Shown piece by piece: positions 1 to 5,083 of a DNA stretch of 5,083 nucleotides. Made by a program: the position numbers and the translations under genes. Numbering within the stretch: the stretch's first letter is position 1; each line of letters opens with the position of its first letter. The notes under the pieces were generated by a model. It had not been told where the DNA came from. It saw only the letters and a list, made by a program, of their open reading frames with translations, and did no database searches. This DNA comes from a virus. Lineage: Duplodnaviria; Heunggongvirae; Uroviricota; Caudoviricetes. The stretch covers positions 1-5,083 of IMG/VR virus record IMGVR_UViG_3300010266_000075. One strand, written 5' to 3'.

Positions 1-1
1 A

Positions 2-334
2 GAATCAACGGAAACGGCGGCAAGACAACATATCGGGCCACTGGCCCCGGTGGCAGGCTCTGATTTGTATGTGTTCAGGCCGGTGGCACATACGGTGGAT
101 TTTCATATCCGCGTGACGCCGGACACACCGGAAATACGGGCTGCCATCACCGCGGAGTTGCGTTCGTTCCTGCTGCGTGATGGTTATCCGCAGGGAGAAC
201 TGAAGGTGTCGCGTATCAGTGAAGCGATTTCCGGTGCGAACGGGGAATACAGCCATCAGTTGCTTGCACCGGCGGACAATATCTCCATTGCAAAAAATGA
301 ACTGGCGGTTCTGGGGACGATTTCATGGACGTGA
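2..334 (+). CDS. Baseplate J-like protein, C-terminal fragment (5' end lies outside the window); Mu gp47 / P2 gpJ / e14 YmfP-like
   Basis: The frame is open from position 2 with no stop until TGA at 332-334 (the ORF track starts it at an internal GTG at 50). Its stop overlaps the next gene's ATG (ATGGACGTGA), typical of phage late-operon coupling. Position immediately upstream of a gp48/YmfQ-like gene and the tail fibre matches the baseplate J to gp48 to fibre order. Family assignment is by synteny and memory, not by search. Confidence 0.55.
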
Positions 335-909
335 CAAACGATGATTACATCCGCCTGTTATCGGCACTGTTGCCGCCCGGTCCGGCGTGGTCAGCCAGCG
401 ATCCGGCGATTGCCGGTGCGGCACCGTCATTAACCCGTGTTCATCAGCGTGCGGATGCCCTGATGCGGGAGCTGGATCCGCGCACCACCACCGAACTGAT
501 AAACCGCTGGGAGCGTCTGTGCGGTCTGCCGGATGAATGTATTCCGGCGGGAACGCAGACCCTTCGCCAGCGTCAGCAACGGCTGGATGCGAAGGTTAAC
601 CTGGCGGGCGGCATCAACGAGGATTTTTATCTTGCACAGCTTGCTGCCCTGGGCAGACCAGATGCCACCATCACGCGATACGACAAAAGCACGTTCACCT
701 GCTCATCGGCCTGTACTGACGCGGTGAATGCGCCGGAATGGCGGTATTACTGGCAGGTCAACATGCCAGCCGCCACCAACACCACCTGGATGACATGTGG
801 CGATCCCTGTGATTCCGCACTGCGTATCTGGGGCGACACCGTTGTCGAGTGCGTGCTTAACAAACTCTGCCCTTCGCATACCTACGTAATTTTTAAATAT
901 CCGGAGTAA
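325..909 (+). CDS. ymfQ: Phage tail/baseplate protein, Mu gp48 / P2 gpI-like (DUF2313), YmfQ-like
   Basis: 194-aa ORF starting [22 protein letters not shown], with a GGGGA Shine-Dalgarno about 8 nt upstream and a 4-bp overlap with the upstream stop. Length (194 aa) and position between the J-like gene and the side tail fibre match YmfQ of the e14 prophage. The symbol rests on synteny and recollection, not alignment. Confidence 0.7.
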
Positions 910-912
910 TCC

Positions 913-1701
913 ATGCATCGTATAGACACGAAAACCGCGCAGAAGGATAAGTTCGGCGCGGGTAAGAACGGTTTTACCCGTGGTAACCCCCAGACCGGCA
1001 CACCTGCCACCGATCTGGATGATGACTACTTTGACATGTTGCAGGAAGAACTTTGTAGCGTGGTGGAGGCCTCCGGTGCCAGCCTGGAGAAAGGGCGGCA
1101 TGACCAGATGCTTACCGCACTTCGTGCGCTGCTGTTAAGCCGCAAGAATCCGTTTGGCGATATCAAATCGGATGGCACTGTGCAAACGGCTCTCGAAAAC
1201 CTTGGTTTGGGAGAAGGCTCTGCATTACCTGTTGGTGTCCCTGTTCCGTGGCCTTCAGCCACTCCGCCAACAGGCTGGCTGAAATGCAATGGTGCGGCTT
1301 TTTCTGCCGAAGAGTACCCAAAACTGGCAAAGGCTTACCCAAAGTTAAAATTACCGGATTTGCGCGGTGAGTTTATTCGCGGGTGGGATGATGGGCGAGG
1401 TGTTGATTCCGCGAGACTGCTACTTTCAAGTCAGGCGGCATCTATCCTTGAACATAACCATGAAATGCATGGATGGACAGGGAACCCACTCATGGCTAGA
1501 GATGTTGGTGAATTAGGTACATCATCCGTATTTGCGGTGCAGTTGAGCATTGGCGATGGCGGGTTATTGTATTCGTGGAAGGATGGGAGTGGAACAACAA
1601 ATGACAGTAAACGAATGGATAGAACAAATCATGTCAGTTCCGGCGCCGGTGATGGTAGCCCGCGAAACATTGCATTTAACTACATTGTGAGGGCTGCATA
1701 A
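913..1701 (+). CDS. stfE: Side tail-fibre protein: constant N-terminal part (about aa 1-100) fused in this orientation to a variable C-terminal part carrying a tail-collar domain
   Basis: ATG at 913 with GGAG 5 nt upstream. A tail-collar motif is visible: [25 protein letters not shown]...[19 protein letters not shown] (GWLxCNG...LPDLRGxFxRG pattern). A hix-like crossover site sits inside the gene at 1190-1215, splitting it into constant and variable parts. The symbol is tentative and refers to the e14 variable part currently fused in frame. Confidence 0.8.
1190..1215. repeat. Left crossover site of the invertible segment (pix/gix/hix-like 26-bp site inside the tail-fibre gene)
   Basis: CTCTCGAAAACC-TT-GGTTTGGGAGAA has the hix/gix architecture (12-bp imperfect half-sites around a 2-bp core; compare hixL TTCTTGAAAACC-AA-GGTTTTTGATAA, recalled from memory). 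It is an inverted copy of the site at 3100-3125, with 15 bp of exact identity (TTGGTTTGGGAGAAG at 1202-1216 equals the reverse complement of 3099-3113). Confidence 0.65.
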
Positions 1702-2304
1702 ATGGAACAGGCTATTTTGGGAAAAGACGGTTACGCTTTAAATGATGGGGAAATCATCGTACATAACTATGATGGCGAAACGCGGGAATATATTTCTACA
1801 TCAACTGAATATCTCGCTGTCGGCGTCGGTATCCCGGCATGTTCCTGTCTGGATGCACCAGGTACACATAAAGCTGGTTATGCAATCTGTCGCTCTGTAG
1901 ATTTAAATTCATGGGAATATGTGCCAGACCATCGCGGTGAAACGGTCTATAGCACCAAAACAGGAGAATCAAAAGAAATCACCGCTCCGGGTGATTATCC
2001 TGAAAATACAACCACTATCGCCCCATTAACGCCATACGATAAATGGGATGGTGAGAAATGGGTGACCGATACTGAGGCACAGCATAGCGCCGCAGTAGAC
2101 GCGGCAGAAGCACAGCGCCAGTCACTGATTGATGCTGCAATGGCTTCCATTAGTCTGATTCAACTGAAATTGCAGGCCGGACGTAAACTGACGCAGGCAG
2201 AAACAACCAGACTTAACGCTGTGCTGGATTACATTGACGCGGTGACGGCAACAGATACCAGCACCGCGCCGGATGTCATCTGGCCTGAACTGCCGGAGGC
2301 GTAG
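1702..2304 (+). CDS. tfaE: Tail-fibre assembly protein (chaperone) cognate to the expressed fibre C-terminus
   Basis: ATG at 1702 immediately follows the fibre stop (TAA-ATG). The 200-aa product ends with the conserved Tfa C-terminal signature ...LNAVLDYIDAVTATDTSTAPDVIWPELP. Length matches TfaE of e14. The symbol is tentative. Confidence 0.78.
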   Translation: MEQAILGKDGYALNDGEIIVHNYDGETREYISTSTEYLAVGVGIPACSCLDAPGTHKAGYAICRSVDLNSWEYVPDHRGETVYSTKTGESKEITAPGDYPENTTTIAPLTPYDKWDGEKWVTDTEAQHSAAVDAAEAQRQSLIDAAMASISLIQLKLQAGRKLTQAETTRLNAVLDYIDAVTATDTSTAPDVIWPELPEA

Positions 2305-2719
2305 GCCATTCAATATCTGGCGCACTGGAGGTATCAACCAGCTCCAGTGCGTCCAGATAATCCAGCCACAAATTATATTGCGCCAGTTCCTCACCTTTCA
2401 GACGACCAATAGCGGCTTTACCGGGCCATTGCTTACTGTTCATGTATTCGTTGGCCTGGTTAATTAGTAGCTGTCTTTCTGATTCAGTAATTTCAATAAG
2501 CTCTTCATGCGTGGGTGGAGGAATATCTGCCCACGCAGGCAGCCCATCATCTCCGGCAATACGGATTTTTCCTTGTGGCGGTTCAGCCATAAACTCACTG
2601 ATAATATTTTGATTTACTTCCTTAGCGTCTGATAAATCCCATCCCTCTGATTTATATTTATCAATCATATCCACAGGGAAAAAAGCATTATGCCTTGCGC
2701 TATAAACATATTCGTTCAT
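2276..2719 (-). CDS. tfaP: Alternative tail-fibre assembly protein, in the silent orientation of the invertible segment
   Basis: Minus-strand ORF ending ...LWLDYLDALELVDTSSAPDIEWPTPP, the same Tfa C-terminal signature as the plus-strand gene. I place the start at ATG 2719 (AGGGTGA RBS 6 nt upstream); the ORF track starts at GTG 2728. Its 3' end overlaps the plus-strand tfa by 29 bp. The symbol is tentative. Confidence 0.68.
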   Translation of the reverse strand: MNEYVYSARHNAFFPVDMIDKYKSEGWDLSDAKEVNQNIISEFMAEPPQGKIRIAGDDGLPAWADIPPPTHEELIEITESERQLLINQANEYMNSKQWPGKAAIGRLKGEELAQYNLWLDYLDALELVDTSSAPDIEWPTPPAVQAR

Positions 2720-2739
2720 ATAAATCACCCTGAATAAAA

Positions 2740-3112
2740 TTACTCACCAACAGCCCACCAACTGTAATTCATCGATACCGTGTCGCTGGTTGATGACGTT
2801 CTGTAAGCAGAATTAAAGCCGGTTAACGTTGGGCCTTCTGCAGTCATCACGAACCCTCGCCCAGCGCCTAAAGGCGCACCGCCATCACCAGAATGAGTAA
2901 GCATGGCGCAGTCCGCTTTTTTGGGGAAAGGGATGCTGAATGTAATTCTCATTGTTTGCGTCGATAATGTCGGCGTAACCGCACCACGACCATATTGCAG
3001 GATTTTCCCGTTGGGTAATTTCATCCATCCATCACCACTGGCAAAAGAGGCCATGTCCGGTATCTGATTTTCCCCTGTCCCCACATCCCGTTTTGCCGCT
3101 TCTCCCAAACCA
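2740..3112 (-). CDS. stfP: Alternative variable C-terminal tail-fibre segment, start-less in this orientation; would fuse to the constant part at 913 after inversion
   Basis: Minus-strand frame open from the right crossover site to a stop at 2740-2742. Next to the crossover it encodes N-V-G-L-G-E, mirroring N-L-G-L-G-E in the plus-strand fibre, and then diverges. The track's apparent start at 3153 lies outside the invertible segment and is an artefact. The symbol is tentative. Confidence 0.6.
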
Positions 3113-3125
3113 ACGTTTATGAAAA
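3100..3125. repeat. Right crossover site of the invertible segment (pix/gix/hix-like), immediately upstream of the invertase gene
   Basis: TTCTCCCAAACC-AA-CGTTTATGAAAA is the inverted partner of the site at 1190-1215. It lies 55 bp upstream of the invertase start, the usual placement of gixR/hixR-type sites. Confidence 0.65.
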
Positions 3126-3179
3126 TGCAGAAATAACGAGCAAATGGCATCATTCCTGCTTTTGTCAGGGGGATCTACC

Positions 3180-3734
3180 ATGCTTATTGGCTATGTACGC
3201 GTATCAACAAATGACCAGAACACAGATCTACAACGTAATGCGCTGAACTGTGCAGGATGCGAGCTGATTTTTGAAGACAAGATAAGCGGCACAAAGTCCG
3301 AAAGGCCGGGACTGAAAAAACTGCTCAGGACATTATCGGCAGGTGACACTCTGGTTGTCTGGAAGCTGGATCGGCTGGGGCGTAGTATGCGGCATCTTGT
3401 CGTGCTGGTGGAGGAGTTGCGCGAACGAGGCATCAACTTTCGTAGTCTGACGGATTCAATTGATACCAGCACACCAATGGGACGCTTTTTCTTTCATGTG
3501 ATGGGTGCCCTGGCTGAAATGGAGCGTGAACTGATTGTTGAACGAACAAAAGCTGGACTGGAAGCTGCTCGCGCACAGGGACGAATTGGTGGACGTCGCC
3601 CCAAACTTACACCAGAACAATGGGAGCAGGCCGGACGATTAATTGCAGCAGGAATTCCTCGCCAGAAGGTAGCGATCATCTATGATATTGGTGTATCGAC
3701 TTTGTATAAGAGGTTTCCAGCCAGGATTATATAA
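3180..3734 (+). CDS. pinE: Site-specific DNA invertase, small serine recombinase of the Pin/Gin/Hin/Cin family
   Basis: Starts MLIGYVRVSTNDQ with the catalytic Ser at position 9 in the YVRVSTxxQ motif. Also contains DTLVVWKLDRLGRS, the GRFFFHVMGALAEMERELIVERT core and a C-terminal helix-turn-helix (IPRQKVAIIYDIGVSTLYKRF). GGGGGA RBS about 7 nt upstream of ATG 3180; the upstream ATG at 3144 has no RBS and would add a non-conserved leader. Length 184 aa. Confidence 0.92.
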   Translation: MLIGYVRVSTNDQNTDLQRNALNCAGCELIFEDKISGTKSERPGLKKLLRTLSAGDTLVVWKLDRLGRSMRHLVVLVEELRERGINFRSLTDSIDTSTPMGRFFFHVMGALAEMERELIVERTKAGLEAARAQGRIGGRRPKLTPEQWEQAGRLIAAGIPRQKVAIIYDIGVSTLYKRFPARII

Positions 3735-3735
3735 A

Positions 3736-3770
3736 ACCGCAGACACGCCGTATGCAAGACGTGCTGCGGT
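3736..3770 (+). terminator. Candidate hairpin just after the invertase stop; weak, with no clear U-tract
   Basis: ACCGCAGACACG, a 12-nt loop, then CGTGCTGCGGT form an imperfect stem of about 11 bp starting 2 nt after the TAA at 3732-3734. It is not followed by a T-run, so intrinsic termination is uncertain. Confidence 0.25.
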
Positions 3771-3930
3771 TGGCTGATGCACTTTCGAGAGTGTATGTAT
3801 TGAATTATTTCCAGCCGTTACTGATTTTACGTATTTTTTGTATGAGAGGAGTTGCACCACCTCTTAAGCATAATTTGTTAGAATCATGGCAGCACAATAG
3901 CCATATATCCAATATAAAATACTTAACCTT

Positions 3931-4830
3931 CTAATCATTATGGAGTATTTGATCGCCGTATGGCCAGCCATTTTCCCCAGGAAGGGTCATACCTAACATT
4001 GGCATAATACTAAGTTGTCCAATGGTAAATCCTAGAGCACTTGTATTACTGATTCCGGCATAGGTCATATCAAGGGGGTTAGACTCTGAGCTGGACATAA
4101 AAAGATTTCTTGTGCCAATTCTATTCGCCATTGAGAACTGAATATGCCCACCAATTGTATTTACGGTGTCCTGAGATATCCAGTTGTTTAACGCGATAAA
4201 TGGCGCCCGCCACCAGTTAAGCGTGCCATTCTCAAAACGCCCCCTCGTCATCTCAATATCTTCCCGAAACTGCTGCTTTCTGTCTCCCAAGACTACCGGG
4301 GTACCTGTTGTCAGGTCAAGGCAGTCCTCAATTACAAGATTAGTGGGGTTTGATGGGGTGTTGTAGATCTTAATGATTTTATGTACCTGTGTTCTGAAAC
4401 AGAATCCGTAAATAATCATCTCCGTTGCTACAGAACGGGGAAAAAACTGGCCAATATCCAGTATAAATTTTTCCGCGATTCCCTTTGTTAAAACTGCAAT
4501 TTCATAAAGACTCGGGTAACTATCATAAGTCAACTCCGGCTGCTGAACATCATAATAATTAACTTCATGTAATGAAGATAATGATACGGCAAGTAACTCC
4601 TTCACATTTATACCGATCATTGTTCCTCCTGCAAAGCCGAAACCAAACTCCATAATTTTTTCCGGAGATAGACGGTATATGTCATTGGAGCGAATAACTG
4701 ATACCGGAATCGAGAATAGTTTAGGACAGTGATTTGTCATTACACTTTCATGCTGGGTGATTCTTGAGTCGCTTACGGCCCAGATACTTTCCCCTTCTTC
4801 CCTGTTTAGCCAGCAGGCTATTGCTGTCAT
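3931..4830 (-). CDS. Hypothetical 299-aa protein, AT-rich cargo gene convergent with the invertase; possible N-terminal-nucleophile (HslV/proteasome-beta-like) hydrolase; candidate defence or exclusion gene
   Basis: Long minus-strand ORF. I place the start at ATG 4830 (MTAIACWLN...) because a strong Shine-Dalgarno (AAAGGGGG, plus-strand 4838-4845) lies about 7 nt upstream; the track's upstream extension to 4968 has no RBS. Composition is visibly AT-rich compared with the tail genes. The N-terminus has Thr2, Asp21, Lys37 and an FAGGT motif at 66-70, reminiscent of HslV (MTTIV...GFAGGTADAF, recalled from memory). It is not McrA-like and no HNH or Walker motif was seen. Confidence 0.65.
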   Translation of the reverse strand: MTAIACWLNREEGESIWAVSDSRITQHESVMTNHCPKLFSIPVSVIRSNDIYRLSPEKIMEFGFGFAGGTMIGINVKELLAVSLSSLHEVNYYDVQQPELTYDSYPSLYEIAVLTKGIAEKFILDIGQFFPRSVATEMIIYGFCFRTQVHKIIKIYNTPSNPTNLVIEDCLDLTTGTPVVLGDRKQQFREDIEMTRGRFENGTLNWWRAPFIALNNWISQDTVNTIGGHIQFSMANRIGTRNLFMSSSESNPLDMTYAGISNTSALGFTIGQLSIMPMLGMTLPGENGWPYGDQILHND

Positions 4831-4859
4831 TGAAAACCCCCTTTTAAGTAAAAAAATCA

Positions 4860-4895
4860 GATTCAGATAGTGCATACATAATTTAGTCAAGTCAT
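4860..4895 (-). promoter_or_regulatory. Candidate sigma70-type promoter for the cargo gene (weak)
   Basis: On the minus strand, TTGACT (complement of 4885-4890) is followed about 15 nt downstream by TATCTG (complement of 4864-4869), in AT-rich context 30-60 nt upstream of the RBS. The -10 element and the spacing are suboptimal, so this is speculative. Confidence 0.2.
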
Positions 4896-5083
4896 CTCTT
4901 TTAAGACGCATTGAGAAATGGTTGCTCAAGGTGCGCCAGTGAACGCGCACGAAAATAACTTCTTGCATTTCCCATTACACTCTGACTTTAGGGCCGCGTT
5001 AGATTTTAACATGGTGGCCGTGCATCCATTTAAATTGGTAATCTGGAGAATGAGTAACGCTGAATAGATTAACAATCTATGCG

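Follow-up and report, generated by a model that had tools for sequence, protein, structure and literature searches.

A predicted proteasome-type threonine hydrolase carried as mobile cargo behind a prophage pin invertase

Lit, encoded by a single cargo gene of an e14-type prophage, is a latent protease fired by phage infection; it is a zinc metalloprotease, with the Gol peptide of T4 as its trigger and EF-Tu as its target. Type II cyclic oligonucleotide-based antiphage signalling systems (CBASS) use ubiquitin-like conjugation. Here we analyse a gene for a protein of 299 amino acids (aa) in a stretch of 5083 nucleotides (nt) from a member of the Caudoviricetes (IMG/VR virus record IMGVR_UViG_3300010266_000075, positions 1 to 5083), the whole of which we refer to as the window. 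The gene (3931..4830, minus strand, stop codon 3933-3931 included) lies immediately downstream of the pin invertase gene, in the slot that holds mcrA in the e14 prophage of Escherichia coli K-12. Our best reading, which we favour with moderate confidence, is that its product is an N-terminal-threonine protease borne by mobile elements and engaged in phage or mobile-element conflict; we infer the role in defence from genomic context.

The closest described proteins are proteasome homologues. Fuchs, Alva and Lupas (2021; PMC8665760) reported 22 new families of them, including the proteobacterial families GPH, RPC and DPH, all three very divergent and with the catalytic triad kept. An added C-terminal region was described for GPH and RPC, the latter without helix H2, and no function or informative genomic context was found for those homologues (PMC8665760). 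The family of the 299-aa protein may be one of these three, which we compared by description only. GPH is the best guess because our structural model has both helix H2 and a C-terminal addition; RPC, being without H2, fits worse. The representatives of GPH, RPC and DPH (WP_152342571.1, WP_140207863 and WP_074989469.1) were absent from the 20 family clusters that were looked up. Unlike the families in the published account, the present one has a context, made up of cargo slots, defence islands and CBASS loci.

Fold and predicted active site

That the protein is a very divergent N-terminal nucleophile (Ntn) hydrolase of the proteasome-beta/HslV type is well supported by its predicted structure. 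Fold comparison of the AlphaFold model of the 299-aa form (predicted local distance difference test score 86.8, predicted template modelling score 0.88) gave figures of 17.1 for Anbu, about 16 for alpha subunits, 15.7 for HslV and 14.0 for BPH. Foldseek agreed, with top 50 matches that were all proteasome beta subunits or Anbu (E about 3e-8). The model is a four-layer alpha-beta-beta-alpha Ntn sandwich with strands and helices in proteasome order, including helices H1 (residues 70-84) and H2 (108-127). Past this core runs a strand-rich C-terminal tail of about 50 residues, modelled at lower confidence; this extension (about residues 247-299; 3934..4092, minus strand) contains a GM(S/T)LP..(N/D)GW motif in enterobacterial members of the family.

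An exhaustive search gave a family of 188 clusters at 50% identity, distributed over gamma- and beta-proteobacteria, whose database names are all 'hypothetical protein'. Conservation was assessed in an alignment of 110 diverse members that are 21-81% identical to the 299-aa protein. All start with Met followed by Thr (107 members) or Ser (three), without a propeptide, and of the top 150 matches listed nearly all align from their first residue onwards. Since there is no propeptide, removal of Met1 alone would expose the nucleophile, which the fold predicts to be Thr2 (codon 4825..4827, minus strand), in the first strand of the model. Three residues that follow, likewise encoded on the minus strand, would complete the active site: Asp21 (4768..4770), at the end of the second strand, and Lys37 (4720..4722), at or just before the start of the fourth, are both invariant, and Gly68 is present in 109/110, in an A-G turn that precedes helix H1 and closes an F-G-F-A-G motif (residues 64-68, 4627..4641). 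Gly182 and Gly227-Gly228 (4147..4152, minus strand) are also invariant. The order and spacing of the four residues equal those of Thr1, Asp/Glu17, Lys33 and Gly47 of the proteasome in Thermoplasma acidophilum numbering, so that, by strand register in the model, Asp21 is the predicted equivalent of Asp/Glu17, Lys37 that of Lys33 and Gly68 that of the oxyanion glycine, Gly47. Similarly, a G-(D/S) and a G-G turn are placed where proteasomes have Gly128-Ser129 and Gly170-Gly171, which would make Gly227-Gly228 the counterpart of the Ser169-Gly170-Gly171 turn.

The protein resembles the 20S beta subunits, HslV, Anbu and BPH (MEROPS T1) in that a Thr at the predicted mature N-terminus is followed by an invariant Asp, an equally invariant Lys and then an A-G turn, placed along the strands in the order that those proteins show. 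Like most proteasome homologues besides beta subunits and HslV, it would require no propeptide cleavage beyond removal of Met (PMC8665760). It differs from the proteasome in having no detectable sequence similarity to it, in the Ser129 position, which is Asp or Ser, and in the absence of an obvious equivalent of Asp166. Further features are specific to the family: Trp7, Trp17 and Cys144 are conserved, the loop that joins H1 to H2 is longer, and there is the tail of about 50 residues.

Some of these features bear on the alternative that the protein is an Ntn enzyme but no protease, for example a sequence-specific ligase or transpeptidase of proteins, as archaeal connectase is, or an amidase whose substrate is a small molecule or the cell wall. 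The wider Ntn clan has many non-peptidase amidases, and the near-invariant Cys144 (104/110), Trp7 and Trp17 are absent from proteasomes. Connectase, however, is without H1 and H2, both of which are in our model, and we consider an enzyme of this kind improbable. Two further identities were tried and rejected. A nuclease of the McrA/HNH type is contradicted by the absence of any HNH match in Pfam and by the proteasome-like fold. As for HslVU, there was no HslV sequence match and no conserved AAA+ gene adjoining the family in the loci examined; unlike HslV, the protein has no AAA+ partner such as HslU nearby.

The start codon was settled by comparison with homologues. The minus-strand open reading frame (ORF) that ends at 3931 has a longest form of 345 aa, with an ATG at 4968, whereas the ATG at 4830-4828 gives the 299-aa form and is preceded, after a 6-nt spacer, by a ribosome-binding site read from the sequence as AAGGGGG (4837..4843, minus strand). 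Homologues from many genera are nearly all 260-306 aa long and have a common N-terminus, MT(A/S)I..W; the 299-aa start, which agrees with them in both respects, is therefore taken as correct, and the 345-aa start is rejected, the upstream extension not being common to proteins that begin Met-Thr. The in-frame extension (4831..4968, minus strand) is probably untranslated. RefSeq starts differ between genomes, with 299 aa in WP_024248228.1 and WP_104769329.1 and 345 aa in WP_233337191.1 (locus L002, 10195-11232); the longer form is probably a mis-annotation, as it would bury the predicted N-terminal Thr nucleophile.

A preliminary description of the window had recognised no similarity of the protein to tail, lysis or McrA/HNH proteins and had ranked the gene as its best candidate for a previously undescribed system. 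The first statement stands for sequence, as the 299-aa protein had no match in Pfam, PADLOC, NCBIfam or PHROGs and 27 of its relatives gave nothing or noise only against the same four collections, but not for structure: the fold is clearly proteasome-like, and the Foldseek comparison that the description proposed yielded recognisable relatives in the proteasome beta subunits and Anbu. The PADLOC comparison that it also proposed matched no known defence family (PADLOC-DB 2.0; neither the 299-aa nor the 345-aa form gave a match at E <= 1). The family itself may be in the 2021 catalogue (PMC8665760) and so may not be undescribed.

The cassette, the slot after pin and the host prophage

The final 1384 bases of the window are 100% identical to the complete E. 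coli genomes NADC1036 and 'Bongo'. Direct comparison of the NADC1036 prophage locus (L001) with locus L002 revealed a discrete block of 2490 bp (L001 12038-14527, L002 10001-12490; 99% identity) whose limits are window 3737, 3 nt past the pin stop codon, and the stop codon of intS. This cassette has a G+C content of 42.7%, contains two genes on the same strand and runs about 1.1 kb beyond the end of the window, which holds its first part (3737..5083). At 99% identity it is shared by a plasmid and two unrelated prophages, one with a Mu tail and the other lambdoid, and five further records carry the gene without pin, at a lambdoid prophage end beside torT and on plasmid pSM107_MCR. No terminal repeats were found at the cassette ends. 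Its first ~125 nt (3737-3861) are conserved pin-downstream sequence, also present in about 930 other E. coli genomes (the other 929 genomes match query positions 1-164 only), and the variable cargo therefore starts near 3862. The 299-aa gene has a G+C content of 42.3%, compared with 50.9% for window positions 1-3734, though the fibre-assembly genes in the window are likewise fairly AT-rich.

Among 5426 complete E. coli genomes, seven carry the gene, and just two of the 936 genomes with the same pin 3' end carry it in that slot. Other occupants include mcrA (K-12), sitABCD and, in an e14-like prophage at icd, a McrBC-like AAA ATPase with McrC. The existence of these occupants, together with the low frequency of our gene, shows the slot after pin to be a genuine variable cargo site. 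The data support the conclusion that the gene is horizontally moved cargo and not part of the phage's own machinery.

The second gene of the cassette, 481 bp upstream of the 299-aa gene and outside the window, about 530 bp past its end, encodes a 200-aa protein (WP_021577015.1; L001 13613-14215, minus strand) that has a membrane helix at its N-terminus and is helical in the rest, for which there was no Pfam match and only a weak ZorB-like match at the N-terminus. It was rejected as a partner, having no homologue beside other members of the family. In Serratia, Cronobacter and Dickeya the 200-aa protein occurs unaccompanied by the proteasome-like gene, and in Serratia its neighbours are an unrelated 261-aa gene and the Septu genes PtuA/PtuB; it is possibly a small defence-island gene in its own right.

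The remainder of the window is a tail-fibre arm. Pfam matches identify the end of a baseplate-J gene (left of 325), a YmfQ/Mu-gp48 gene (325-909), a fibre gene with a collar domain (913-1701), a tail-fibre assembly gene (1702-2304), an inverted assembly gene (2728-2276) and an inverted fibre C-terminus (3153-2740), followed by the pin invertase gene that borders the cargo slot (3180..3734, plus strand; ORF from 3144; Resolvase and HTH_7 domains), which is annotated as pinE in the identical RefSeq locus. This order is colinear with the right arm of K-12 e14 (jayE-ymfQ-stfP-tfaP-tfaE-stfE-pinE-mcrA). An Rfam search of the window gave no match. The NADC1036 prophage has a contractile tail of the Mu/SfV type and adjoins intS and tRNA-Arg rather than lying at icd, so that the host prophage resembles e14 in no more than its tail-fibre and pin arm.

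Much of what the preliminary description had said about this region is borne out. The e14-like gene order from the J-like gene to pin agrees with Pfam and with the RefSeq annotation of the identical locus; the gene is AT-rich, on the opposite strand and behind a strong ribosome-binding site; comparison with K-12 e14 places mcrA directly after pinE; and the proposed comparison of pin-downstream regions found a variable slot. Two of its claims need qualification. The likeness to e14 extends to the colinear tail-fibre and pin arm but not to the insertion site, which is tRNA-Arg/intS and not icd. The 'horizontally acquired single-gene module' was indeed acquired, given a cassette shared at 99% by two prophages and a plasmid and its presence in 7/5426 genomes, but the unit is a 2.5-kb cassette of two genes.

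Several other features of these loci were observed. Between the lambdoid tail-fibre assembly gene and the cassette lies a gene for a 410-aa protein (WP_104769331.1; L002 8528-9760, L003 8528-9760) with no match in Pfam or PADLOC, a further piece of uncharacterised cargo at a prophage end. Locus L003 is the 64-85 kb region of plasmid pSM107_MCR (NZ_CP130669.1; 111 kb), which has a PilV shufflon, type IV pilus genes and lambdoid tail genes (gpJ, Lom, tail fibre) in addition to the cassette; this combination suggests that an IncI-like plasmid has received an insertion of a prophage fragment or of a phage-plasmid hybrid. The pin-flanked tail-fibre segment (window 913-3153, L001 9246-11451) is oriented oppositely in the window and in NADC1036: two stretches of the window, 1661-2338 and 1197-1406, match L001 at 86-87% identity in inverted orientation, and the two sequences differ in the distal parts of fibre and assembly genes. 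The inverted segment fits a Pin inversion switch that is active, or was so recently, and whose alternative fibre tips have diverged.

Neighbourhoods of the relatives

To see where relatives of the gene sit, we use a sample of about 30 distinct loci, which is not a genome-wide enrichment statistic. Relatives were found in prophages of several kinds: at the end of a P2-like prophage of Providencia, by ogr/gpD, where the gene adjoins the candidate defence gene PDC-S59; in a lambdoid prophage of Serratia, between the recombination genes and cI and beside a RelA/SpoT gene that matches PDC-S33; and in the S-V slot of a P2-like prophage of Rahnella. The Citrobacter relative comes after a CbtA/CbeA toxin-antitoxin pair and before an integrase, and those on Pseudomonas and Burkholderia gladioli elements lie 1.5 kb from, or directly after, integrases. 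Conjugative plasmids of Vibrio and Acinetobacter also carry relatives, the Vibrio one in an island that also holds CBASS, a helicase system and a paired SLATT and reverse transcriptase; Mrr/HNH genes are other defence neighbours across the loci. A 306-aa E. coli paralogue, 60% identical and present in 38/5426 complete genomes, is carried by an integrative and conjugative element (ICE), 48 bp past the conjugative ATPase gene and before three small helix-turn-helix (HTH) genes (L062 9025-9945 in E. coli S10; also L050/L051). A third E. coli variant of 291 aa, about 35% identical, was seen on 107 contigs. Relatives therefore recur by defence genes and in mobile cargo hotspots of unrelated genomes, the pattern on which guilt by association relies.

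No conserved partner gene was found across the loci. Besides the 200-aa cassette protein, the 205-aa gene upstream of the Rahnella relative and the 410-aa lambdoid neighbour were considered as partners and rejected, as neither had family matches. Since no conserved partner gene was found, the proteasome-like gene appears to act as a solo unit.

Presence on every kind of mobile element, by integrases and, behind the conjugative ATPase, within an ICE transfer cluster, would also fit a gene that benefits its element in some other way, as a counter-defence protease, an exclusion or competition factor or a life-cycle regulator, and two other proteasome homologues, PPH and AAH, are phage-borne (PMC8665760). 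However, there was no match to the family in 50,697 sequenced phage genomes and its occurrence in viral contigs is rare (four loci, prophage-derived), while several copies lie in non-mobile chromosomal defence islands, on the same strand as CBASS, which would be odd for counter-defence. We therefore judge a benefit of this kind unlikely.

An unexpected and recurrent defence neighbour is CBASS. Scanning of the neighbouring genes with PADLOC found a CBASS cyclase within 7 kb in nine of the approximately 30 loci, with at least six CBASS architectures among them; the binomial tail for this frequency is 1e-5 against a background of 5% that was assumed, not measured. In four loci (L008, L009, L025/L046 and L047) the cyclase is directly adjacent and on the same strand. 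On chromosome 1 of Burkholderia sp. LMG 32019 (L008 2695-7941), three tandem CD-NTase genes are directly upstream of the homologue, encoding cyclases of 423 aa with an E2, 287 aa with a four-transmembrane (4TM) effector and 515 aa without a recognised effector, the last of which is separated from the proteasome-like gene by a 60-bp gap. This is an unusually dense CBASS array. A SLATT and cyclase pair precedes the gene in Pseudomonas cedrina; on a Vibrio plasmid, as on a metagenome contig that matches it, a cyclase and a two-transmembrane (2TM) effector come 52-60 bp after the gene; and on another metagenome contig the cyclase stops 23 bp ahead of the gene. At greater distances, type II CBASS (patatin, cyclase, E1-E2, JAB) is found 1.6-7 kb away in Herminiimonas, Pseudoxanthomonas and a metagenome lineage, Cap15 and a CD-NTase 1.3 kb away in Pantoea, and a SAVED-2TM effector with SMODS 6 kb away in Photobacterium. 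In three loci of beta- or gamma-proteobacteria (L010 6198-7909, L011 6539-7987, L040 6581-7812), a two-gene pair on the same strand stands between type II CBASS and the gene; the pairs differ, one being an HTH gene and a HipA-like kinase, another 104-aa and 317-aa proteins of no assigned function and another proteins of 132 aa and 278 aa. We regard the CBASS pattern as strong evidence that the gene belongs to a defence neighbourhood.

A more specific interpretation would make the gene a CBASS component, either an unrecognised effector switched on by what the cyclase makes or an accessory for processing the cyclase or an inhibitor of phage origin, with the copies in E. coli prophages being orphans that use CBASS located elsewhere, or autonomous. 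Same-strand adjacency to CD-NTase genes in unrelated taxa, at gaps of 23-60 bp, speaks for it, as does the recurrence of CBASS at 1.3-7 kb in five further lineages. Nevertheless, about 20 loci, including the window, are without a cyclase nearby, the adjacent cyclases of Pseudomonas and Vibrio have a SLATT or 2TM effector of their own, and neither Pfam nor PADLOC detected SAVED, STING, Cap15-type or any other nucleotide-sensor domain in the protein, whose only part outside the core is the tail. Defence systems, moreover, cluster regardless. The gene resembles the Cap genes of CBASS in often lying by a CD-NTase gene, at times within 23-60 bp and on the same strand, and differs from them in belonging to no CBASS model set, in having no recognised nucleotide sensor and in that most copies are without a cyclase nearby. 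Dedicated membership in CBASS seems doubtful to us on this balance.

A number of results weigh against a defence protease as the best reading. At the level of sequence, none of 27 family members matched the Pfam proteasome model PF00227, searches of PDB sequences with the protein and two family profiles gave noise only, and hhalign comparison of the 110-member profile with E. coli HslV and the T. acidophilum beta subunit produced no meaningful alignment, local or global. Because the profile comparisons failed, the residue equivalences rest on the predicted model and strand order; because neither PF00227 nor any proteasome chain was matched, the family is taken to be separate from, and very distant to, the proteasome. 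As to context, in about four or five loci of distant members the surroundings are ordinary chromosomal genes, and neither a mobile element nor a defence gene is visible there, sitABCD in the slot after pin shows that cargo sites hold non-defence genes too, and context alone cannot separate defence from counter-defence or other roles that benefit the element. Finally, a promoter and terminator scan upstream of the gene inside the window found nothing above background. That result, together with the rarity of the gene in E. coli, would suit an inert passenger, a decaying or non-functional ORF in a recombination-prone slot. Such a passenger is very hard to reconcile with an intact ORF behind a strong ribosome-binding site and with catalytic-type residues that are invariant across gamma- and beta-proteobacterial sequences 21-30% identical, an invariance that requires purifying selection, and we give it hardly any credence.

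Proposed action and meaning

The mobile N-terminal-threonine protease that we favour might act as follows. Methionine aminopeptidase would expose Thr2, the hydroxyl and free amino group of which would act with Asp21 and Lys37, Gly68 contributing the oxyanion hole, to cut peptide (amide) bonds, as predicted from the model. The gene rides on its AT-rich cassette in the variable slot after pin, just as its relatives are carried singly by prophages, satellites, an ICE and plasmids and are found in defence islands, and it would supply a self-contained conflict protease directed against phages or mobile elements. The protease would be kept harmless by its assembly state or by the C-terminal tail. 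Its structural relatives suggest that it is probably active only when assembled or otherwise licensed, and this would account for the tolerance of a solitary protease gene that has no antitoxin. On infection, it may cleave a phage protein or an essential host protein, by analogy with Lit of e14. The parallel with Lit is one of setting, in that the 299-aa gene is carried by an element of like kind and occupies the mcrA position of e14, and not of structure, since the folds are unrelated and a threonine Ntn hydrolase is predicted here in place of a zinc metalloprotease. Unlike the genes of the proteasome, the gene here is an accessory, mobile one and not a housekeeping one.

What the family represents is a known catalytic scaffold in a new mobile setting that is probably immune. 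In the library that we searched, we found no paper that connects phage defence or CBASS with a proteasome homologue or an Ntn hydrolase. It is possible, and we propose it tentatively, that this proteasome-fold Thr protease is a stand-alone antiviral or anti-mobile-element effector passed among prophages, ICEs and plasmids and wired into CBASS in some lineages.

With a fold, a catalytic pattern and a consistent setting, the family now offers a directly clonable, one-gene candidate, which would still be a well-defined mobile cargo of unassigned use if it were inactive in phage assays. Were it to protect against phage, bacterial immunity would have its first protease of the proteasome type, and an 'orphan' bacterial proteasome homologue would gain a function. 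A link to CBASS would mean that a proteolytic step joins a pathway with ubiquitin-like chemistry. And should the tentative proposal of a stand-alone, in part CBASS-wired, effector prove true, bacteria would have a module for immune proteolysis with the catalytic scaffold of the eukaryotic (immuno)proteasome.

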